This document shows positions 1,439-60,591 of a DNA stretch of 64,000 nt, one piece after another. The stretch is taken from the sequence record OZ346158.1, one strand, 5' to 3'. Each line of letters opens with the position of its first letter. The stretch's first letter is position 1. The stretch is from a phage. The notes under the pieces are model-generated. The model was not told where the DNA came from. It ran no database searches and worked only from the letters and a program-made list of their open reading frames with translations. A program made the translations under genes and the position numbers.

Positions 1439-3510
1439 TGGCAACAGCTGTTTTTAAACCTTACCGTGATTACTCTACAATGGCTGCACAGTTTCATTAC
1501 CGCACAGTTCAGGATACTGCCGTTCCTGGTAGAGATTATGATCATGTTGAGGGCGATGTAACTATCCCAGTTGGGGCAACCAGTATTGAGATCCCAGTGG
1601 AAATTGTTGACAAATTACCCAACAGGTTGCCAAGAAGCTTCTTTATGGAGTTTTCATCAAAATCTCAAGGAGTGATGATTGGAACACAAAGGGCGAAATG
1701 TACAATAGTTTCAGATGAGAATCTTGACAGGATATCTTGGGATACTGTTGAGGAGAGAATGTTTCACCCAAGATATTGGGTTACAACCACTCAGCAGACT
1801 GAAAGTACCTGTATTGTTGCAGATAACAACTGTTGTATTAACCGTTTAGTGTCAAGAACATATGGAGGTATGGCTGGGTGCATTTGGGAAACAGTTGACA
1901 AGTATGACCATTTCGGTATTGGGTTTGATGATCACTATGAGATGAGAAACACCAAGCTTTGGTTCAGAATGTCAATAACCAACGCCAGCAACTTCTCCAC
2001 TCCTGAAAAGATGATTATGACTGTAGACCTTGTTGATGGCACAATCATCTATGTTCCTTTAGCTCAATATGCTGTCAGCATCTCAGAGGATAAAAATGTT
2101 GCAGAAATTCATATTGATTTTGAGGACTGCGTCGGGATGGACCAGAACAACAACATGATGGGTGTTGATCCTCGGCAGGTGAGAAGGATTTTAATACCAC
2201 TTATGCCTAAAGACTGGGTAAGTAATAGCACAGATCCAAGAACGGAAAATGTAGAGTGTGAGTTGCGCCTAGATCTGCTTCAGCCAGACACAGGCTGGAA
2301 AATGATGCAACTTAATAATATCCAGGTGAGAGAGCACGACGTTGGGATCTGCACCGCATATGACGATATGTGGAACGTGTCCCCTTTAAGGGTGTTGAAC
2401 AATATCAAGCGTCTGGGCTATACCGGAACCATAAACCATTATGTTGGTATGAGTCATTATTATGACTACACATGGTCAGGAACCCAATGGTCTATAAACA
2501 GAACAGGAGCGCTAAACGCTGCAGCTTATAAATGGCATGATGATTTTATGTACAATGCCAAACGACATAACTTCGACGTTATGCAATCTGTAAGTTTTGA
2601 GCTTTTCAGCGATGCCTGCCCGTTGGAATGGACCCAAAGAGACTGGAACGATAACTACGCTAAAACAGGGTATACACCTTGTAGCTACCTCCTGTCTCCA
2701 ACCATTGAAGAGGGTATGAATTTCCTTACTGCAGTATTTAAGAATTTTGCATCAGCCGCTATGAGAAACAACCTGCCAGTGATTATGCAGGTTGGTGAAC
2801 CGTGGTGGTGGTACAATACCGATACTCGTAGACCTTGTATTTATGATTACCCTACAAAGCAGGCGTTTTATGATGAGACAGGTGAGTATGCATTAGATAT
2901 TGGGACTATTGACGATCCTAAAACTGGCGGTGTTTACGACAAGTATGTAGCATTTTGTCGTGGTAAGCTTGGCGCTCGTATTGCTGCTATTTCAAAGGCA
3001 ATAAAGGCACACGCTGCATCAGCTCAGATGACAGCTCTGCTGTTTTTCCCAACCATTATGGAAACCGAGCTTACGCAAAAGCTTAACCTTGCTGACCAAT
3101 ATAAAAAGGAAGCAGGTGCTCTTGATTTCTTCTGCACCGAGTGCTACGATTGGGTGATGCAGGGAGGTATTGAAAAGGCAAAAGAGTCTGTAAACATACC
3201 TATCGTTAAGTTAGGTTGGCAACCGTCTGAAATACAATACCTTGCAGGGTTCGTTCCTAGTAAAGAGCTTGCTCCGGTATATGGTTACGACCCAACTAGG
3301 AATTACCAAGAATTTTTATGGAGATGTATTTGCGGAAACATGGCAACTATAGAGTATAGATACCCTGAGGTAAAACAGTATGTGTGGGCATACCCGCAAG
3401 TAATGTCTGACAGCATCACTGTTACCGCTAGAGATTCTACCGTGCTTCATATGGGGCAGGTTGCTCTGAAAGGGTATGTAGAAGATGTTGTCCCGCCAGA
3501 CTTCTCATAA
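1438..3510 (+). CDS. hypothetical large virion protein (690 aa)
   Basis: Long uninterrupted ORF, GGAGGG RBS, translationally coupled to upstream gene; function not recognisable. Confidence 0.65.
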   Translation: MATAVFKPYRDYSTMAAQFHYRTVQDTAVPGRDYDHVEGDVTIPVGATSIEIPVEIVDKLPNRLPRSFFMEFSSKSQGVMIGTQRAKCTIVSDENLDRISWDTVEERMFHPRYWVTTTQQTESTCIVADNNCCINRLVSRTYGGMAGCIWETVDKYDHFGIGFDDHYEMRNTKLWFRMSITNASNFSTPEKMIMTVDLVDGTIIYVPLAQYAVSISEDKNVAEIHIDFEDCVGMDQNNNMMGVDPRQVRRILIPLMPKDWVSNSTDPRTENVECELRLDLLQPDTGWKMMQLNNIQVREHDVGICTAYDDMWNVSPLRVLNNIKRLGYTGTINHYVGMSHYYDYTWSGTQWSINRTGALNAAAYKWHDDFMYNAKRHNFDVMQSVSFELFSDACPLEWTQRDWNDNYAKTGYTPCSYLLSPTIEEGMNFLTAVFKNFASAAMRNNLPVIMQVGEPWWWYNTDTRRPCIYDYPTKQAFYDETGEYALDIGTIDDPKTGGVYDKYVAFCRGKLGARIAAISKAIKAHAASAQMTALLFFPTIMETELTQKLNLADQYKKEAGALDFFCTECYDWVMQGGIEKAKESVNIPIVKLGWQPSEIQYLAGFVPSKELAPVYGYDPTRNYQEFLWRCICGNMATIEYRYPEVKQYVWAYPQVMSDSITVTARDSTVLHMGQVALKGYVEDVVPPDFS

Positions 3511-33596: not shown

Positions 33597-34361
33597 TTGA
33601 AATTTATCTACAAAGAACACTACCACAAAGGTGTTGTGTGGAGCCTATTTGACGGATCTGGTGGTGCAGTCATTGACTGGGCAAAAGCTGGATATCTGTG
33701 CCTGTGCTTTAACGCAGAAGGTGCTGACCACGGCAGTTATGCAGAGGTGATCACCGATCATCCAAATATTCACTATGTAGATTATTGGATTGATCCATGG
33801 TTCCCTCAGGAAACTTTCTGCATGTACCCAGCTCCGGACTTTGTTCTTGCATTTCCTCCGTGCACCCACTTAGCGGTGTCAGGTGCTGCACACTTTAAGA
33901 AGAAGCTGGCTAAGGACCCGTTGATCCAGATTAATGCTGTAAAGGATGCTCGGGTTGCAGAAGAGTTGGGAGAGATTTACGATTGCCCGTGGCATGTAGA
34001 GAATCCTGTGGGTGTTATGTCCACACTGTGGCGCAAACCTGATTACCGTTTTCACCCTTCTGACTATGGCGGGTATTTACCGGAGGATGATGTAAACCCC
34101 TGGTTTCCTGAATTTATAGCTCCACGTGATGCCTATCCAAAAATAACTTGCGGCTGGATAGGTAATGGATTTATAATCCCGGCCACAAAACCTGTCCCGC
34201 AAATAGTTGACGCGGTTAGCGGGTATTCCATGCAACACGCCAAGCTGGGTGGAAAGAGTGCAAGAACGAAGATGATCCGAAGCCTCACACCACGTGGCTG
34301 GGCAAAAGCCGTATTCTTAGCAAACGAGCCTGTAGTAAGGAGCAGAATTAATGGGAAGTAA
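33597..34361 (+). CDS. C5-cytosine methyltransferase-like protein (short; PCT in place of PCQ)
   Basis: TTG start 6 nt after AGGAGA; motif I-like VWSLFDGSGGA, motif IV-like AFPPCTHLAVSGA, motif VI-like WHVENPVG. Confidence 0.5.
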   Translation: MKFIYKEHYHKGVVWSLFDGSGGAVIDWAKAGYLCLCFNAEGADHGSYAEVITDHPNIHYVDYWIDPWFPQETFCMYPAPDFVLAFPPCTHLAVSGAAHFKKKLAKDPLIQINAVKDARVAEELGEIYDCPWHVENPVGVMSTLWRKPDYRFHPSDYGGYLPEDDVNPWFPEFIAPRDAYPKITCGWIGNGFIIPATKPVPQIVDAVSGYSMQHAKLGGKSARTKMIRSLTPRGWAKAVFLANEPVVRSRINGK

Positions 34362-36429
34362 ATTTATGGCATCTGCATACAACCGTTTCGGTGAGCCAAA
34401 CCCGAAAGCAACTAAGTATAAAAGTGGGGGAAGTGTGAAACGAGACTATCGTGATGAAAAAGAGGTTGAAACTGTAGAGACTGTTTTAGAAAATACTAAA
34501 ATTGTCCCTGTTCCACAACAAAATATCGGTCTGATGGCTGCACAATATTTTGGTGTGCGATCAGCATTGTCTCAAGAAGACGGTGTGACAGTTACTGCAA
34601 CATATTTCCCATATTACGACCGCTACGGAAATCTGTCAGGTTTCAAAAAGCGTGACTGGACGATTCCTAAAGAGCAAAGGGGCCATTTCTCAGTTGTTGG
34701 CATAGTAAAGGCTAACTCTCAGATGTTTGGGCAAAAGCTGTGTGCATCTTCCAACAACCGTAAGCAAATTAACGTTTGTGAGGGGGAAGGTGATGTTATT
34801 GCAGCATGGCAGGCTGCATATCAGATACAAGTAAAAGGGATTCTCACCAACGCTAAAGCCCCGGCAAAGGTGAAGCAGTGGGCTAAAGAGGTCCAGGACG
34901 GGATCGATGCAGTTATCAACGGTGGTGATCTGGCAGGAAAACCCTGCCTACCTTTTGTTGGAATTAACTGTGGATGTGCAAACGCAGTAGATACTTTTGC
35001 AAACAATGAGAAGTTTATCCGTAGCTATGGAACAGTTGTGCTGGCAATGGATAACGATGCAGCTAACGAGGTAGAGAAGCAAAAACACGTCATTAAAGGT
35101 GTCGAGGCCACGCACAATATCGCAGCATTTTTGATGGCTGATAACGTTTACCACGTAGAATACCCTGGTGAAGTAAACGACCCTGACGGTGTAAAAGATA
35201 TCCGAGACATGCTGAAGGCTAAAAAGCTGGAAGATATTGTCAACATGTTCCGGCATCCTGTTAAATATGTGCCTGATGCTGTGTCGGATTTAGAAGACTT
35301 CTCTATCGAGTCTTTGCGGAAAAAGACTTCCAACGGGGTAGATATCAGCGCAGAGTTCCCAAAACTGCAAAAAATGCTAAAAGGCTTGCACAAAGGTACA
35401 CTCGTAATGCTTACAGGCCCATCAGGTGGCGGTAAAACAACCGTAGCTAAAAAACTGGAACACTGTATTGCAAGATACCTAATGGACCCGACATGCCCGA
35501 AGGCTGATGACTATGAAGAGGATGATCGTCTATGTATGATCCATCTTGAGGAGGACCCAGAGGAAGCAATTAACTCCTTGTATGCAAACCAGTTAGGGTT
35601 TGATGTTAAAGAGTTTGTTGAAGATCCTAGCCAGTTTTTAACTGATCAAGAACACGCAGAGATTCATCAGTCATGGGCAAAAGCTGGAAAAATCAAAGTG
35701 TTCAAACATTTCGGGTCTATTCCGGTGGATGAGTTGATTACCAAGCTTAAGCAAATGGTTTGCCTGTACCATTGCCGTTATATTGTGCTGGATCACCTGT
35801 CCATGGTAATTTCAGGGCTTAATGTTAAGGATGAGCGAAAAGAACTGGACATGGCTATGACCCAACTGGCTGCGTTTTGTAAGCAGTTTAATGTGTTTAT
35901 CTTGGTGATCGCTCACCTCAAACGTACAGAGATTGTGCCTCCTAAGGACAAGGATGGTAACCCGTTACCTTTCTGGTATCCTGTGCGAAAAGAGAATTTG
36001 CGAGGATCGGCGGGGCTTGAACAGTTGAGTTGGGTAGTCATAGGTGTCGAGGCCGAAGAAATGGTGGATCGTTCTCGTGGACGTGTCCGTCTGGTAGGTC
36101 TTAAAAACCGTCCAGCAAAAACTCTAGGTATTGCTGACACTTTGGTTATGGACCCGCACACAGGTAAGTTCCATGATGCCAGTAATTGGTACTGGGACAA
36201 AGAAATGCAAATGTTTACAGACGGAGAAGGTGGGGAGGTTGTTTGGAGACCTCAGGCTATGTTTGAGGATCAGGAGCATGCAGTTGTAGAAACACCTATG
36301 GGCAAGGTTGTGGCTGATAAGGTTGTAACACCCACTGTCAAGCCTATTGACACGCAGGAAGACCTCCAATACGATGATCCATCCTCTGATCCGGTCCCTG
36401 GTTTTGAGGATGATGAAACACCTTTTTAA
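34351..36429 (+). CDS. primase-helicase (T7 gp4-like)
   Basis: 692 aa; TOPRIM-like CEGEGDVIAAWQA; helicase Walker A LTGPSGGGKTT and Walker B YIVLDHLSMV, with IAHLKR downstream. Confidence 0.8.
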   Translation: MGSKFMASAYNRFGEPNPKATKYKSGGSVKRDYRDEKEVETVETVLENTKIVPVPQQNIGLMAAQYFGVRSALSQEDGVTVTATYFPYYDRYGNLSGFKKRDWTIPKEQRGHFSVVGIVKANSQMFGQKLCASSNNRKQINVCEGEGDVIAAWQAAYQIQVKGILTNAKAPAKVKQWAKEVQDGIDAVINGGDLAGKPCLPFVGINCGCANAVDTFANNEKFIRSYGTVVLAMDNDAANEVEKQKHVIKGVEATHNIAAFLMADNVYHVEYPGEVNDPDGVKDIRDMLKAKKLEDIVNMFRHPVKYVPDAVSDLEDFSIESLRKKTSNGVDISAEFPKLQKMLKGLHKGTLVMLTGPSGGGKTTVAKKLEHCIARYLMDPTCPKADDYEEDDRLCMIHLEEDPEEAINSLYANQLGFDVKEFVEDPSQFLTDQEHAEIHQSWAKAGKIKVFKHFGSIPVDELITKLKQMVCLYHCRYIVLDHLSMVISGLNVKDERKELDMAMTQLAAFCKQFNVFILVIAHLKRTEIVPPKDKDGNPLPFWYPVRKENLRGSAGLEQLSWVVIGVEAEEMVDRSRGRVRLVGLKNRPAKTLGIADTLVMDPHTGKFHDASNWYWDKEMQMFTDGEGGEVVWRPQAMFEDQEHAVVETPMGKVVADKVVTPTVKPIDTQEDLQYDDPSSDPVPGFEDDETPF

Positions 36430-36487: not shown

Positions 36488-38911
36488 ATGAGCATGTGGT
36501 CGTTCGACTTTGAGTCATCCGGTTTGCTGGAAGATCCAGATCTTTATTATCACTGCGGCCTGTTTAAAGAGCTGAATAAGAACCGTTTTATGCTGTTCCT
36601 TCCTCTAAATGACCGCACACACTACTCCGAAGAGGATATAGAGAAGGCTAAGAACTTTATTCTGGCAAAGAAAACTCTTCATAAAGATTTTGAAGTTCGC
36701 ATAGCAGATTTTTCGGAGTTGGAAGGTTGGCTTACAGGCAATTCCGACTGGTCACCAACAGCTTTGAACTGCCATAACTGCTACAGTTATGACTTTATGC
36801 TGATGGAAAGATTATCCGGTATTCATTTTGATATGTTCCGTGATCCTAAATGCATGGGGACTATCAACGACCACCAGGTTAACCTGTTTGATACGTTGGC
36901 TATGAGCCGAATCTTGTGGCCTGATCGCCCTTTACCAAAAGGTTGTCCGGACGCTGTATTCAACCCGGTTACTAAGAAAATGCAACCTGTTGGTCCTCAC
37001 GGCCTTATGGCATGGGGCTACGCCCTTGGTAACCAGAAAGTTCAAATTGATGACTGGCGCGATCTTCCGCTGTGGAAATATGTGGATCGTGTGTTCGAGG
37101 ACGTTATCATCCAGGAGTTGCTCTGGAAAGAGTTGGTAGCGGAATCAAAAGGTGTATTCTACGGCAAATCTGACATGCAGAACTTTATGTATGACCCTGC
37201 CAAAGAGAAGCCTAAAGGATTCAAGAAGATTACCTGGAAGAATGCATTACGCCGAGGCATGCTGCAGCATTTCCTGATGGAGCTGCAGGCTCGACAGGGT
37301 GTGTATTTCGACATAGATGGGGCTATTGCTTTACGTGACCGCTGCGATGCGTGGATGAAAGAGATCGCTGATCGTGTTGAACCACAACTTCCTTTAAAAG
37401 AGTTATCAATGTCTCAGCGGCCTAAGTTCCCTGAAAAGCCGTTTAACCAGGATGGGACAATCTCCAATAATGGTTGGAAATGGTTAAAAGATAAGCTTGG
37501 CTATCCTGTAGACATGAGCGCTTTAGAATTCAAAGCCCCGCCTAAGCGAGCATTTACCTCCACAGGAGATGTCAGCAAGATGGGGATAAAATGGTGCGAA
37601 GAGATGGGCTGCAAAGACCCCGACAAGATGGCTGATTTCTTGAGAGGTTATATTAAGGGCACCTCCACACCACAACCTTTACCTAAAGAGCTGATGGATC
37701 AGGCAATAAGTGATCTGCAGCAGAAGCGAATGCCTGACTGCAAGATACCTATGAAAATCAGCAATCAGGACGACATTAAGCGATACCTGATCAGTGCTGG
37801 TTGGCTTCCGACAATGTGGAGAACTAAGGATGTAACTAAGGACAGCAAGAAGAAAGCTCTACCTGATGCAGATGTTGATGCACGAGTATATGCATACATG
37901 GACGAGCTTTTAGAGTCAGAGTATTGTGACCTAATTATCAACTTCTGGAACAAAACTGATGCTAAGTTTCAGACAACAGTGCACAAGTTCCGAAGCTTTC
38001 CTAACTCCGAAAGGATTAAAAAGGAAGTGTTCGGGAAAATACGCAGAAAAGCCAGGGCACTTATTACTTCTCCGCAACTGAAAGATACGTTTGGACACCT
38101 ATGTCCGAATCTTGAAAAATTGAACGGAGAGATGGCTAAAGATATCGTCTTGTGGTTATCATTGCGAAACCGCAGATCGGTCCTTGATCCAATCAAGGAG
38201 GATAAGGTTGATACTGGTCTTCTTAATCACCCACGTTTGAAGATTGACCATAAGCTTCCTGCTAAAAGCTCTGGATTAACAAACACTTCCCGACAGAAAC
38301 ACAGTATTTGTGCAAACATGCCTAAACCATCTCCTAAAGTGGTTATGGGTAAAGAGATGCGTAGCTTGTGGGGTGTTCCTCCTGGATACTTTGAGATCGG
38401 TATTGACGGGTCCAACTTAGAGCAGCTTATCGGGGCTTGGGGTGCCTTTGAGTTCGACAACGGCTTGTACTATGATGTTGTAAGTAACGGGGACGCACAC
38501 CAAAACAATGCTGAGGCATATACAAAAGTAGCAGGCAGAGAGGTGTCTCGTAACGACGGTAAACCTATCACGTATGGGGTTATGTACGGGGCACAAAAAG
38601 ATAAAGTTGCAGATATGCTGGATATCTCCCCAGAGTTGGGGCAAAGGGTGATCGATGCACTTTGGGATGCCAACCCCGGTCTTAAGGGGCGCAAAGAGGA
38701 TCTGGAGAAATTCTGGGAAGCAACGGGTAAGAAGTTTATCTACTCTTTTGATGGTCATGCCATCTGGACCCGATCTAAACACTCTTTACTTAATGCATAC
38801 CAACAGAATGGTGGTGCATCGCTGTGTGACTTGGTTGGGATACTTATGCACCACCAAATGGTGAAGCGTGGGTGGTACGATGAAGGTGTTCGTCGTATTA
38901 TTTATTACCAT
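36488..38911 (+). CDS. DNA polymerase family A, exon 1 (3'-5' exo and most of pol domain)
   Basis: Exo I-like FDFESSG; motif A-like YFEIGIDGSNLEQLIGA; motif B-like RNDGKPITYGVMYGAQKDKVAD; reading frame ends ...IIYYH, then K and stop, i.e. just before the expected motif C HDE. Confidence 0.8.
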
Positions 38912-39753
38912 AAATAACATTGTGGCTTCGTGCAGTGATGCACGTCGAAAACCTCTTTAATTGACGGGAAGGCTAAGTTGACTTTTACACCTAAACATGG
39001 TAAAAGCTCAATATGCTAATCCGCAGCGAAGACTAAAGGGGTGTAGTTAAAATGGCTAGATCAGTTGATTATCACGGATATACCGTGTTTGATGATGGAA
39101 CAATACCTTTATCGAAACGTGATCATACAACAATGTTCTGTTTTGATAATGGTCGAGGTTACCTTTGCGTAACCATGTTCATCGAGGGGAAGCAGTGCAC
39201 AAAAGGTGTCCACCACTTGGTTGCTGAATGCTTTGTATCAAACCCTGATCCTGAAAGGCTCACATGGGTGAACCATAAGGACGGAAACAAATACAACAAT
39301 GCATACTGGAACCTTGAATGGACCACCCCTGGTGGAAATATCAAACACGCTTATGATAATGACCTCAGAGTAAGGCCAGTCGGTGAGTATAATGCCAACG
39401 CTGTACTGACCGAGGATGAGGTAACGGAGATTTGCGAACTGTTACAAAGTGGTTTACGACAATGCGAGATTAGGGATCTTGGGTATCCTTATGAGACGGT
39501 CAGAGCCATAAAGCAAAGAAGACAGTGGAAACATATCTCTAAAAACTACACCTGGTAGTAACGTTCAGAGACTATCGAAAGCATAGCGCCAACATAAATT
39601 GGTGCGAAGAAGCGAGTAGAGTAGGCCAGCAAGTGCGGTCGAAATGGGAGGTGCCTTGGTAACAAGGTAGTGAGATAGTCCGATCCATACAGGAAACTGT
39701 ATGGCTGTGCACGTAATGGTGCGGGGTAGCTTAACGACCTACCTGAACTATTG
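38912..39753 (+). ncRNA. putative group I self-splicing intron interrupting the DNA polymerase gene
   Basis: 5' exon ends in U, intron ends in G; P1 possible between exon CCAU+AA and UUGUGG at 38920..38925 (U-G wobble at splice site); P2-like hairpin CGTGCA-GTGA-TGCACG; P7-like AGACUA (39568) / UAGUC (39676); P9-like hairpin CCATACAG-GAAA-CTGTATGG; contains HNH ORF. Confidence 0.7.
39052..39558 (+). CDS. HNH homing endonuclease (intron-encoded)
   Basis: 168 aa; HNH motif HHLVAECF...VNHKDGNKYNNAYWNLEW; lies inside the putative intron. Confidence 0.8.
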   Translation: MARSVDYHGYTVFDDGTIPLSKRDHTTMFCFDNGRGYLCVTMFIEGKQCTKGVHHLVAECFVSNPDPERLTWVNHKDGNKYNNAYWNLEWTTPGGNIKHAYDNDLRVRPVGEYNANAVLTEDEVTEICELLQSGLRQCEIRDLGYPYETVRAIKQRRQWKHISKNYTW

Positions 39754-48185: not shown

Positions 48186-48375
48186 GCTTAAATCTGCATG
48201 GAACATCGCTGTGGGGGATGAGATCCGCATCCCAGGTGGAAAGACCATTATGAAGATATCACGTATCGAGTATGAAGGTGATCGTGTATTTCATATCTTT
48301 GCAGAAGATGGTCGAGAAATTTATATACAGGCAGGCTCTCACATCTATATCAGTAAGAAAGGGGACGACAAATGA
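48172..48375 (+). CDS. hypothetical protein
   Basis: 67 aa, AGGAGGG RBS, overlaps upstream end. Confidence 0.45.
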   Translation: MQMFKLKSAWNIAVGDEIRIPGGKTIMKISRIEYEGDRVFHIFAEDGREIYIQAGSHIYISKKGDDK

Positions 48376-48704
48376 CAGAGATCATCGTTTCAACTGCAGG
48401 GTATGTATTCCTGACAATCATTGCGTTGGCTATTCTGGTGGCGGTGTATGGATTTGTTATCCTGCCTATTCTTGAGACATTTAGCTTGTGTCGGTGTTGG
48501 AGAAAAGCTTACGGACCACAACCGTGGAAAGACTGGTTTCATTTGGTGCGTATAGCGTTCTCTTATGCCTATGATCACTCCAGCAGTGCATGCGTAACCG
48601 GGTACCATGCCTACAACTGGAACTGGGAAGGGCTTGGGAGATGGACTGTTACAAAAACTATACCCTTACGGTTGTATAAAGGAAAGAACACACTGGGAGC
48701 CTGA
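48372..48704 (+). CDS. hypothetical membrane protein
   Basis: 110 aa, N-terminal hydrophobic helix; last gene before repeat-rich non-coding region. Confidence 0.5.
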   Translation: MTEIIVSTAGYVFLTIIALAILVAVYGFVILPILETFSLCRCWRKAYGPQPWKDWFHLVRIAFSYAYDHSSSACVTGYHAYNWNWEGLGRWTVTKTIPLRLYKGKNTLGA

Positions 48705-48739
48705 TATTTTAAGTTATCAGATTGCCAGAGATCAGGAGG

Positions 48740-49200
48740 ATTTCTAAAATGGATTTCCTCCTTTTGATATTTTACCTACCAGGATATTTTAAAATCCTTA
48801 GAAAATCAGAAAATGGATCGAAAACTAAAATGGATTTTTCAGAGCAGGCACGACGAGATGAACCACTCATCCTATCGTCTGCACCATATTCCAGACCACC
48901 ATTACAGATTTCCCGCACATGCTCACATCCTTCTACTAGAACTTCCCCCACTTACCCTTGACCTTTTATAGTAATAATCCAACCACTACCTTGAAGTTGT
49001 GGCGCAGCTTTCCAAGTACTCGATCTGTTTTTCGTTTCAAAGATTTAATTTTCTGAAAATTTTTCTCGATAAATTTCTCAGTACTCGATCTGTTTTTCGT
49101 TTTCTGAATCGGATTTTCTGGAAATCGTTCCGGCTCTCGACCTGAAATTTTTGGGGACGAAATCGATTTTTCGTTTTCAGAAATGGATTTTTAAAATTTC
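48740..49200. repeat. iteron-like direct repeats in non-coding region
   Basis: AGTACTCGATCTGTTTTTCGTTT at 49015 and 49080 (65-bp spacing), related CGATTTTTCGTTTTCAG at 49163; several AAAATGGAT copies between 48745 and 49190. Confidence 0.6.
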
Positions 49201-49310
49201 TATATGGGAATATTTTAGTGGATACTATTTTATAGGAAATTGTTACGGAGGGTAATTAGCGTGCTAATTAAATTTATTAAATGCGAGGAGTTCTCATTTA
49301 GAATTTTGAA

Positions 49311-49515
49311 TGATAATCATTCTCGTTTGCAGAATAACGGGCAGGCCCGGTGATTGTCTCCCGGCCCCTACTGCCCCGGCTTGTTATTATAGTAACACAC
49401 AGGACAAAGAAAGCAAGAAGTTTTTGCATAAATTTTTAGACGATAATGATAATCGTTCTCATTTCATGCAGCGCCCATCCCCGGTGGTTGTCTCCCCCGT
49501 CACCGGTGCCTGCCG
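49311..49515. repeat. imperfect direct repeat pair (about 55 bp) containing CCGGTG(A/G)TTGTCTCCC
   Basis: ATAATCATTCTCGTTTGCAG...CCCGGTGATTGTCTCCC at 49311 and ATAATGATAATCGTTCTCATTTCATGCAG...CCGGTGGTTGTCTCCCCC at 49444. Confidence 0.6.
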
Positions 49516-49706
49516 TCCTTTCAATAGGTATATTTTGCCACCTGGCGGGGCCGCTGTCAACACTTTTCAAAAAAAAAATTCTAACCTGATGCGCTGACCG
49601 CTGCAACCTGGCAGGGCCTAACTGACCAGGTAGGAGAGAATGAAGGCTTGCAAACCTGGTGGGCCTATGCTATAGGATAGGTAACAATTGAAGAGGAGGT
49701 ACAAAA

Positions 49707-49883
49707 ATGGAAGGTAATATGATCCCCCTGGAAAATGTAGCTATTAATGACGCTGAGGCTATCGCCCTGGTTGAAAAGGCTATGGCGGGAGCGTTGGAAC
49801 ATAAAGAAGAGTACGAAAAAATGGTGGTTAACCTGGCAGGGGCGGCGGCTGGAGAATTCTACCCAAAAAATAATTTTAACTAA
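49707..49883 (+). CDS. hypothetical small protein (58 aa)
   Basis: Below track cutoff; strong RBS AAGAGGAGG 7 nt upstream of ATG. Confidence 0.5.
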   Translation: MEGNMIPLENVAINDAEAIALVEKAMAGALEHKEEYEKMVVNLAGAAAGEFYPKNNFN

Positions 49884-49968
49884 TGGTTGACAGCTCGGAC
49901 AGTTCTTGTTATTCTTATCCTCGCAAGGTGAACAACACCACACCAATTAACAGAGAGGATAAAAAATC

Positions 49969-50166
49969 ATGAACGCCTACGGAATTAAAGTACGTCGCAA
50001 CACTCGCCAGGTGGTCACCAATCAAGTGATTTGCCGGGTGGATGTAACCATCAACAACGGGCAAGGCCTTTATAAATTTCGTCGCGGTCATAGCTATACC
50101 CTGCAACAGCTTAACCGTTGCGCCCTGACAAAAGGTCAGATCAACCACTGGTTTAATAAAAAATAA
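49969..50166 (+). CDS. hypothetical basic protein
   Basis: 65 aa, RBS GAGAGGATAAAAAATCATG. Confidence 0.55.
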   Translation: MNAYGIKVRRNTRQVVTNQVICRVDVTINNGQGLYKFRRGHSYTLQQLNRCALTKGQINHWFNKK

Positions 50167-59778: not shown

Positions 59779-59796
59779 TTTCTTAACTGAATTATC

Positions 59797-59826
59797 AAGG
59801 GGCTTAAAGGCCCCTTTCTTTTTGTC
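59797..59826 (+). terminator. rho-independent terminator ending the + strand small-gene array
   Basis: AGGGGC-TTAAAG-GCCCCT followed by TTCTTTTTG. Confidence 0.75.
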
Positions 59827-60591
59827 TGCTCTTCTCCTACCATAAACGGCCCTACCTGGCAAGTGGAATAATTGACTAGCCATCAATCCCACATACTGTA
59901 CAAATATACATGGAAAATAACTATTGCATAATTTTTCATTGTGTGGTAGCAAGTCCATTTTTACCCGTTTTCTCTCCCAAAAGTGCACGTAATGCCGCTA
60001 TTGCACAAATTTTAACCTGATGCACATCTCCAATATCTTGTCAACAACTAAAAATCTTTATAAGTCATACACTTACACAGCATCGAAAGCGTGTTCTACG
60101 CGAAAAATCGAGTATAACTATAGCCGCCAGATCTCAGAATTCACGTACGCACGCCATTCTATAGCCTGCAAAGTATTTATTCCAACCACAGAATAACGGA
60201 ATAGTCAATACCTGCATAAAATAATTATTCGTGTAAACTGCATAACATAAATCAGCTCAGGTGTCAACATTTTTCGTAAACAGTCCGAAATTATCACGAT
60301 GAGTTATCATAAACAGAGAAATCTTTAGTCGTCTAATGTTTACTGTACATTACTATACTGACTGGAATCATTAGATGACTAATACAATAGAACAAATTAA
60401 TAATGTAATTATTTTACCTGTAACAATAAGGCAACTATGCAAACGAATGGCATGGCGCGACGGAGTCGCGACATAATATAAAAGCAGTAACCATCACCCC
60501 CGTGATAGTTTGTCTGCAAACTATTAATCAGATCATAGTTGCCTTGTATTTAGTTAATCATGACATAACAAGCAAGGCAACTATAGATATA
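59827..60591. other. AT-rich non-coding region with multiple hairpins/inverted repeats
   Basis: No credible ORF; hairpins ATAGTTTG-TCTG-CAAACTAT (60506), ATAGTTGCCTTG...CAAGGCAACTAT (60538/60580, third copy of AAGGCAACTAT at 60424), TAGTCGTCTAATG...CATTAGATGACTA (60326/60376). Confidence 0.5.

Follow-up and report, generated by a model that had tools for sequence, protein, structure and literature searches.

Repeat Region 3 of phage T5 (AY587007 9194–10409) is untranslated and is thought to hold an injection stop signal. Iteron origins (lambda ori with the O protein, plasmid oriV with Rep, T4 oriE with RepEB) consist of direct repeats beside easily melted AT-rich DNA. In the primary origin of T7 (promoters 1.1A/1.1B plus AT-rich DNA) and in T4 oriF/oriG (promoter plus unwinding element), a promoter reads into AT-rich DNA of low stability. 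The packaging (pac) sites of P1 (pac) and SPP1 (pacL/pacR) are cis-essential repeat arrays on bent DNA. Here we describe a control region that resembles each of these systems in part. It was found in 64,000 nucleotides of phage DNA from sequence record OZ346158.1 (this whole stretch is called “the window”), and carries three long direct repeats (iterons), an AT-rich segment and Fur-box-like palindromes. Its core is very probably essential in cis, and we tentatively read the whole as a replication origin of rV5-like phages.

The T5 region and the control region are both about 1 kb of untranslated DNA, with an array of AATGAGAATCATT-type palindromes and then iterons, about 8% from the genome end (in the relatives with mapped ends). 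Both separate small early genes from the rest of the genome, and sequence identity reaches 30 nt. The T5 region differs in lying inside a 10-kb terminal repeat, in having paired DnaA boxes and a nick site, and in its iterons, which are of another sequence and present in nine copies. The phages themselves are unrelated, Demerecviridae siphoviruses on one side and myoviruses on the other, and the function of the T5 region is itself unproven. With iteron origins the locus shares the cis-acting direct repeats beside AT-rich DNA, and a repeat sequence that diverges while copy number and layout are fixed; it differs in the repeat spacing of 65–78 bp, in the initiator gene not found nearby and in the absence of DnaA and IHF sites. 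As in T7, there is a T7 gp4-like primase-helicase and a T7-like DNA polymerase, and a promoter is directed into AT-rich DNA of low stability, but the promoters are of the host sigma-70 type, iterons and Fur-box palindromes are added, and the T7 origin is not strictly essential. With the pac sites it shares repeat arrays on bent DNA and the requirement in cis, but it lies at a distance from the terminase genes, and in relatives the termini are elsewhere. The palindromes agree with enterobacterial Fur boxes (2/19 mismatches to GATAATGATAATCATTATC; 9-1-9 palindrome AATGAgAATcATTctCATT), but are predicted sites in a lytic phage, arrayed with a constant spacing of 29 bp, and they do not clearly overlie a promoter.

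Phages related to rV5 are widely used in biocontrol and phage therapy. The literature that we found on them assigns no origin, pac site or other cis-acting site, and a search for the origin or terminus of Vequintavirinae gave nothing on the control region, which is described in no paper found. The “non-coding” box in the rV5 paper is a 2.6-kb gap at 104,013–106,618, a different locus, and an annotation guide mentions rV5 “wastelands” without explanation.

Essentiality and coding potential

The window belongs to a Vequintavirus. The 1.1 kb around the control region matched 122 phage records, nearly all rV5-like Vequintavirus. Positions 48200–50100 were 99.8% identical to Escherichia phage MaxBurger (BASEL Bas54), for which a 2025 preprint reports transposon-insertion sequencing (HIDEN-SEQ). 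We mapped the Bas54 gene table onto the window, and the TA-site counts agreed exactly. Three annotated genes, bas54_0100 to bas54_0102, fall inside the control region (Table 1). Iteron 3 overlaps the block in which none of the 11 TA sites was hit (bas54_0101), and the AT-rich segment falls within or adjoins the same block. For bas54_0102 the mean read number was ~13, compared with ~200 in neighboring genes. The preprint authors made no remark on this locus. Polar effects do not explain the insertion gap, because the genes on both sides were freely disrupted.

The initial annotation had seen no credible ORF (open reading frame) here, and this holds for all of 48705–49706. The annotated ORFs differ from one GenBank record to the next, and in an alignment of nine vequintaviruses ORF199 of rV5 is broken by 1-nt indels. 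In the same comparison, substitutions by codon position were 11/14/11, 5/3/7 and 11/6/10 for the three MaxBurger “genes”, a flat profile, against 18/11/45 for a neighboring real gene. The ORF starting at the ATG in the Fur box varies in length from 6 to 194 aa in other genera. Protein coding was rejected because of the conflicting annotations, the frame-shifting indels, the missing third-position excess and this variation in length. The tblastn matches to ORF198 (E-values down to 7e-11, with composition correction off) reflect conserved DNA rather than an open frame.

A structured RNA was not recognized either. The region had no match to Rfam families, and its RNA fold z-scores, between −0.8 and −1.5, were not significant. 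RNAalifold gave −0.99 kcal/mol for the unit between palindromes and promoter, with compensatory pairs absent and no conserved secondary structure. A conserved hairpin around GGTGATTGTCTCC, whose stems seemed to covary by eye, was dropped when RNAalifold gave no supported structure.

Since the flanks tolerate insertions and the “genes” are non-coding, what is essential here is the DNA itself, or possibly an unstructured RNA. We are highly confident that the part from the iterons to the Fur boxes (~49000–49600) is at least cis-essential, and that the region as a whole looks like an assembly site for a protein-DNA complex. The annotated bas54_0101 and bas54_0102 are therefore cis-acting DNA, not essential hypothetical proteins. 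What had been published as two such proteins thereby becomes essential DNA whose internal structure is defined, and the Bas54 count of “essential genes of unknown function” is slightly inflated. The region is a concrete target for mapping an origin and also for engineering, in which insertions must spare it and minimal genomes must retain it.

Iterons and their conservation

A repeat reported by the initial annotation, present twice 65 bp apart and with a related third copy, was confirmed. The 23-mer AGTACTCGATCTGTTTTTCGTTT occurs at exactly two sites in the window, 49015–49037 and 49080–49102, and none of 100 shuffles gave any match at ≤3 mismatches. It extends to a 47-nt unit with three copies, starting at 49006, 49071 and 49145 and thus spaced by 65 and 74 bp; the outer copies have 74% identity to the middle (reference) copy. 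Short copies of the core only were found at 49067–49073 (CTCGATA) and 49136–49142 (CTCGACC).

The second half of each iteron is made up of a 16-nt family, TTTCWRAAWYGGATTT, invariant among the nine vequintaviruses. To this family belong also the AAAATGGATTT motifs, described earlier as multiple. They are present, with two exact copies upstream (Table 1) and related ones at 49180 and, on the minus strand, 49160, but their count alone is not significant: at ≤1 mismatch there were six matches against 3.3 expected, a number equaled in 14 of 100 shuffles. Four of the six fall within one 450-bp stretch of the region.

Within the genus, 84–100% of positions in 49050–49600 were invariant, save for one 25-nt block at 64%, and 48800–48824 was 100% invariant. 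Both 48800–48845 and 49050–49600 were generally more conserved than the flanking coding DNA, whereas 48850–49000 varied freely. Distant BLASTN matches showed that 49268–49418 is conserved as DNA in phages of Klebsiella, Salmonella, Cronobacter, Enterobacter and Pectobacterium, and in Phapecoctavirus.

The corresponding loci in other genera are ORF-poor stretches of ~1 kb with a common order of modules: (i) two to four GATATTT repeats; (ii) phased A-tracts with AAATGG(A/T)TTT-type motifs; (iii) a variable spacer; (iv) three long iterons; (v) an AT-rich stretch; (vi) palindromes; (vii) a GAAT..GGCA..CGGTG(A/T)TTGTCTC unit; and (viii) promoter-like elements. The GATATTT copies have the same orientation and directly follow the upstream stop codon in every genus. 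This order recurs in eight lineages of Vequintavirinae and Stephanstirmvirinae, those with an iteron trio being Vequintavirus, Mydovirus, Seunavirus, Certrevirus (two phages), ABPH49, an IMG/VR contig and Justusliebigvirus. The two iteron spacings were 65 and 74 bp in the window, 74 and 67 in Seu621, 76 and 67 in KE23, 78 and 63 in both CR8 and F5M1E, 76 and 69 in the IMG/VR contig, 68 and 65 in ABPH49, and 75 and 67 in BME3. Their sum is 133–145 bp, around 141 bp, in all eight. Pectobacterium phage POP18 (76, 52) and ukendt fitted this geometry less well. The iteron sequences belong to at least three unrelated families, CTCGATCG-type, ACTTGAGRGG-type and TTATTTAAAGTTTTT-type. A fixed geometry with a changing sequence is the pattern expected of a site that co-evolves with a phage-encoded binding protein.

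AT-rich segment, palindromes and promoters

To the right of the iterons, the AT-rich segment is the second least stable 100 bp of the 64 kb; 48740–48839, in the A-tract block, is the third. The adjoining pair of Fur-box-like palindromes comprises a weak one at 49280–49298 (4/18 mismatches) and a strong one at 49309–49327 (AATGATAATCATTCTCGTT, one mismatch). The palindromes at 49309 and 49445 each have 1/18 mismatches to the 9-1-9 palindrome AATGAgAATcATTctCATT, which is the published Fur box of Xanthomonas; at the cut-off of four mismatches, 1.8 matches are expected per 64 kb. Against the 19-bp E. coli consensus GATAATGATAATCATTATC, 49442–49460 had 2/19 mismatches, with 0 expected by chance. 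This third site opens a second, diverged copy of the box and CCCGGTGrTTGTCTCCC unit. Across genera there are 2–5 palindromes per locus, with the consensus AATGAGAATCATTCTCATT, identical to the published Xanthomonas box; most are 29 bp apart, and this spacing is kept across genera. As the palindromes hardly change across genera and match the Fur box, their sequence points to the binding of a host factor, presumably Fur. The likeness to T5 described below raises the testable idea that lytic phages use host Fur-box arrays.

At the place of the weak leftward promoter-like site of the window, a good leftward sigma-70 promoter is present in 11 of 16 relatives; its hexamers are conserved and its spacer varies freely. 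A host origin of the promoter was rejected, with no match found among 5,426 E. coli genomes. At the other end of the region, the terminator-like hairpin behind the upstream gene changes in relatives only to G-U pairs, on the plus strand, as judged from the alignment, and from its sequence it may close the upstream operon.

The initial annotation had delimited a repeat-rich non-coding region at 48705–49300. That stretch is real; the nearby Fur-box array, AT-rich segment, promoters and likeness to T5 Repeat Region 3 had been missed.

Table 1 Features of the control region, and Bas54 genes mapped onto the window with the proportion of TA sites hit by transposons.
Feature	Position	Strand	Remarks
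Whole ORF-free control region	48705–49706		ORF list, nine-genome alignment, negative coding tests, same layout in other genera
GATATTTT repeats, three (48703, 48766, 48783)	48703–48790	+	12 in window vs 3.65 expected, 3 here
Terminator-like hairpin AGGAGGA...TCCTCCT, then TTTTGATATTTT	48734–48773	+	RNA fold z = −1.47, weak
Phased A-tract block with AAAATGGATTT motifs (48746, 48827)	48740–48845		Near-invariant
Variable spacer	48846–49005		Plus strand C-rich, GC skew −0.2 to −0.29; poorly conserved even within genus
Iteron 1	49006–49052	+	Core CTCGATC at 49019–49025, invariant within genus
Iteron 2, reference copy	49071–49117	+	Core CTCGATC at 49084–49090; second half TCTGAATCGGATTTT
Iteron 3, degenerate	49145–49191	+	Core ATCGATT; second half TCAGAAATGGATTTT; 74% identity to reference
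AT-rich segment, candidate DNA-unwinding element beside iterons	49182–49281		24% GC
Two Fur-box-like palindromes, 29 bp apart	49280–49327		One weak, one strong
GAAT-aaC-GGGCA...CGGTGATTGTCTCC, then −10-like TGTTATTAT	49328–49395		Unit most conserved across genera
Weak leftward promoter-like site TTGCTT-19-TATAAT	49386–49416	−	By eye; fails scan criteria
Third Fur-box-like site GATAATGATAATCGTTCTC	49442–49463		2 mismatches to classical 19-bp E. coli Fur box
Leftward sigma-70 promoter-like site TTGACA-17-CAAAAT, upstream TG	49532–49560	−	Aims at Fur boxes and iterons
bas54_0099, upstream gene	48372–48704		18/21 TA sites hit; published as non-essential
bas54_0100, iterons	48999–49145		1/3 TA sites hit; not classified
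bas54_0101, iteron 3 and AT-rich DNA	49151–49255		0/11 TA sites hit; published as “Essential”
bas54_0102, Fur boxes and GC-rich part	49310–49584		5/15 TA sites hit; published as “Strong fitness defect”
bas54_0103–0109	from 49707		86–100% TA sites hit; dispensable

Likeness to T5 and position relative to genome ends

The conserved unit at 49328–49395 was also found in the T5-like phage chee24. The match of this phage to the short Fur-box pattern lies at 8.9–9.8 kb, in the left terminal repeat; this is the untranslated Repeat Region 3. Phages ukendt and chee24 have 30 nt in common without a difference, GAAATGCAAATGATAATGATTCGCATTTAA, and the unit of box, GAGAAT and GC-rich DNA is common to chee24 as well. 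In both T5 and chee24, arrays of the AATGAGAATCATT-type palindrome are followed by iterons, TGTGCAAATCCGAC, with seven copies by repeat search and nine annotated in the record. Their untranslated region is 1.2 kb long, at 7.6–8.5% of the genome. The annotated T5 palindromes E–J and direct repeat C turned out to be Fur-box-like palindromes with 0–3 mismatches (positions 1170–1340 of the extracted T5 locus). At 1031–1050 of the same locus, the annotated “palindrome D” is a perfect LexA box, CTGTATAAATATACAG. A T5 review lists DnaA boxes and does not mention Fur or LexA boxes. A scan of IMG/VR with the short box pattern gave mostly unrelated contigs, with chee24 among the matches, and no match with the long pattern; of 24 loci from the metagenome scan, 13 had the box plus the conserved unit.

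Genome ends have been defined by sequencing in two relatives. The Mydovirus KPP-1 has a terminal repeat of 514 bp at 116,316–116,829, and the Justusliebigvirus BME3 one of 342 bp, annotated at the record junction. The KPP-1 copy of the region is at 125,170–125,465 (iterons 125,317–125,465), 8.3–8.6 kb or ~6% of the genome from the terminal repeat; the BME3 copy, at 11.4–12.4 kb, is ~11.5–12.5 kb or ~8% away. Only small early genes lie between the region and the genome end in both. Read inward from the nearest end, T5-like and rV5-like phages have the same order, early genes, Fur-like palindromes, iterons, reached at 6–8.5% of the genome. The terminal repeats themselves are short in KPP-1 and BME3, with no long repeat as in T5, and circular permutation or headful packaging has been described for rV5 and its close relatives. 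Unlike T5, the region has no inverted repeats with paired DnaA boxes: strict DnaA boxes are absent from 48600–49750. Fur-box-like palindromes were also observed inside the terminal repeats (KPP-1 locus 2414–2432; BME3 locus 53–71 and 248–266), so that such boxes mark both kinds of non-coding hub in these phages.

The region had been proposed as a possible genome terminus. This is contradicted in KPP-1 and BME3, whose terminal repeats map 8–12 kb away, and we conclude from these that the region is not a terminus. The MaxBurger record starts at the terminase operon; the region is ~81 kb from it and not beside the small terminase.

Possible functions

The region 48705–49706 is best read as a replication origin of rV5-like phages. 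We hold this with somewhat less than even confidence; it is the best single reading, and that replication starts here is an inference. Of the traits of an origin, direct repeats (three 47-nt copies here, trios in eight lineages), an AT-rich unwinding element adjoining them (49182–49281, next to iteron 3) and a requirement in cis (0/11 and 5/15 TA sites hit between freely hit flanks) were all found. The general idea of the initial annotation, iterons within a functional non-coding element, is strongly supported by conservation across two phage subfamilies and by the essentiality in cis; of the roles it offered, the origin fits best as a putative role, a terminus is contradicted in relatives and packaging is unlikely. 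Protein binding, unwinding and transcriptional priming would be the parts of this process. A putative phage-encoded protein would bind the three ~47-nt iterons (CTCGATC core, AAAnGGATTT-type second half; trio ~140 bp), and probably also the related upstream motifs, to give a bent or wrapped complex on the phased A-tracts. This complex would destabilize the adjoining 24%-GC segment, 49182–49281. From the leftward sigma-70 promoters to the right of it, host RNA polymerase would transcribe into the AT-rich segment and provide activation or a primer, and the T7-like primase-helicase and the DNA polymerase could then load at the melted segment. The Fur-box palindromes, between promoter and AT-rich DNA, would bind a host factor, presumably Fur, that modulates the transcription step. 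The primase-helicase ends in an acidic, T7-like tail whose last residue is Phe, and it lacks an additional DNA-binding domain, in keeping with initiation primed by transcription.

Several points weigh against an origin. Secondary origins are often available to phages with T7-type replisomes, and an origin would therefore not obviously be expected to be strictly essential. An initiator was not found: the neighboring proteins lack DNA-binding domains as well as conservation from genus to genus, and the upstream neighbors in five genera gave no informative Pfam or PHROG matches, being one NADAR protein and otherwise proteins without an assigned function. Strict DnaA boxes and IHF cores were not found in 48600–49750, where GATC is not enriched, and no Fis sites were found in the region. 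The iterons are 65–78 bp apart, compared with the contiguous ~20-bp spacing of classical iteron origins, and the window homologue of the conserved leftward promoter is weak. The rV5 authors saw no skew shift beyond that explained by transcription direction. Repeat Region 3, the closest architecture, is thought not to be an origin, because electron microscopy put the T5 origins near the middle of the genome. Finally, a second intergenic region of Bas54 (~2.5 kb, bas54_0134/bas54_0135, at 92.8–95.3 kb of MaxBurger), pointed out by the preprint authors, is also insertion-free and could be the origin instead.

The likeness to T5 suggests another function, in which the region, as a counterpart of the “injection stop” of Repeat Region 3, controls DNA transfer. 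The early-gene end would enter first, transfer would pause at the palindromes and iterons through host or phage factors bound there, and the remaining ~92% would enter after early proteins are made, perhaps pulled by RNA polymerase from the leftward promoters. We consider this unlikely, though a serious alternative. The palindromes beside iterons in untranslated DNA, the GAAATGCAAATGATAATGATTCGCATTTAA identity and shared box unit of ukendt and chee24, and the inward order of boxes and iterons all agree with it, as do the positions in KPP-1 and BME3, ~6% and ~8% from the end and separated from it by small early genes alone, the Fur-like boxes inside their terminal repeats, and the conserved leftward promoters, which face the DNA that would enter last. 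However, vequintaviruses are reported to be permuted or headful-packaged, so that no fixed end would be there to enter first; transcription of the early genes runs toward the end, opposite to T5 and T7; the window has no strict DnaA boxes, while T5-like regions carry ~8 DnaA or DnaA-like boxes; and the T5 stop signal was never mapped to these repeats. To our knowledge, two-step transfer has never been reported for a myovirus. A broader form of this proposal, about equally doubtful, is that Vequintavirinae and Stephanstirmvirinae share the genome logic of T5, with the terminal 6–8% holding small host-takeover genes bounded by a barrier of Fur-type (host-factor) palindromes and phage-specific iterons, for staged entry or activation of the remaining genome. 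If true, the T5 “injection stop” would belong to a larger class of cis-elements that phages share horizontally, and phage Fur-box arrays would be a functional docking or sensing device rather than a coincidence. The shared T5 architecture and the conserved Fur-box arrays are the parts that would surprise a specialist. The link to T5 also offers a second, genetically tractable system for the role of Repeat Region 3, a question open since the 1960s–80s, as Cas13a-selectable transposon libraries of Bas54 are available.

With a similarly low probability, the region could be a transcriptional or host-factor hub, where the upstream operon is terminated and promoters under Fur control, of either orientation, serve early transcription or the synthesis of an essential short RNA. 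In another version, a Fur-box array on replicating DNA could titrate host Fur, derepressing iron uptake for the iron-dependent ribonucleotide reductase of the phage. The strong Fur-box matches (2/19 to the E. coli consensus with 0 expected, 1/18 to AATGAgAATcATTctCATT), their strictly kept 29-bp spacing, the promoter-like sites on both strands, the terminator-like hairpin past the upstream gene and the position of the box-to-promoter unit as the most conserved part across genera are consistent with a hub, and a conserved ~90-nt GC-rich element with a terminator-like end in other genera would fit as well. Yet neither an Rfam match nor a conserved RNA structure or significant fold energy was obtained, and the downstream genes are dispensable, making an essential promoter for them unlikely. 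The block fully free of insertions comprises the AT-rich segment and iteron 3, not the promoters, and Fur titration leaves the three co-evolving iterons and cis-essentiality in rich medium unexplained. Far less probable than either is a pac recognition site, with the small terminase binding the repeats and headful packaging starting there. In its favor, the sites known from P1 and SPP1 consist of short repeats arrayed on bent DNA, GATC is present in the iterons of several genera as it is in P1 pac, the region is cis-essential and vequintaviruses are reported headful packagers; but GATC is not enriched in the window copy, the terminase operon of MaxBurger is ~81 kb away with the termini of relatives elsewhere, 8–12 kb from the region, and the second insertion-free region, placed like the terminal-repeat region of KPP-1, is a better candidate. 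The packaging site suggested by the initial annotation is therefore unlikely, and the replication origin remains the preferred reading.

The second non-coding region may serve packaging or hold a genome terminus. The window contains the counterpart of its first 820 bp at 59779–60591, an ORF-poor stretch where genes of the plus and minus strands converge. It includes the least stable 100 bp of the window (60316–60415) and a LexA-box-like site, CTGTACAAATATACAT, at 59896–59911. Past 60595 the window diverges from MaxBurger, whose remainder of the region contains GATATTTG repeats, Fur-like boxes and TGTAAAC repeats. The terminal-repeat region of KPP-1 showed no similarity to the window in DNA or protein, so the two “second” non-coding regions are equated by position only.

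Genomic setting and further observations

Upstream of the control region, the plus strand encodes rIIA/rIIB, a Dda-like helicase, two DNA methyltransferases, the primase-helicase (34351–36429) and the DNA polymerase (36488–38917). Small ORFs then fill ~9.8 kb, the last one ending at 48704, and the 1,002 bp of the control region separate it from the first small early gene (49707–49883). From 49707 on there is an array of small genes, many with sigma-70-type promoters. The placement of the repeats at the boundary between replication block and early-gene array, as first described, is roughly right, apart from the 9.8 kb of small ORFs that set the replication genes at a distance. No tRNAs were found within the window.

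Around the right end of the region, the motif (A/C)ACCTGGCRGGG(CC) occurs in four copies at 49539–49616, 49654 and 49830, partly inside promoter-like spacers. The differences among vequintaviruses there are an indel of 14 nt at 49606, CCTGGCGGGGCCAG, and larger deletions at 49620–49675. In Mydovirus, Seunavirus and Phapecoctavirus a small minus-strand gene lies within the right half of the region (2827–3018 in locus L004, ~2850–3090 in L003); the window has no such gene. The ~90-nt GC-rich element of other genera, CTACCGGCGATCCACCTTCC...GCCCCGCCTTTWCGCCGTGGGGTGGCG, whose end resembles a terminator, is found on the right side of the Fur boxes, at 2700–2790 in L003, 2690–2780 in L004, 2685–2775 in L005, 2650–2740 in L006 and, on the minus strand, ~11.65 kb in BME3. 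It is not present in this window and had no Rfam match; it may be an unrecognized small RNA.

Sixteen GenBank records labeled “Campylobacter phage” matched the region (MG065635, MG065658, MG065661 and MG065646 among them), and those listed had 90.6–99.3% identity to the rV5-like region of E. coli phages. The host label of these records is probably wrong, for example as a result of contaminating coliphages.

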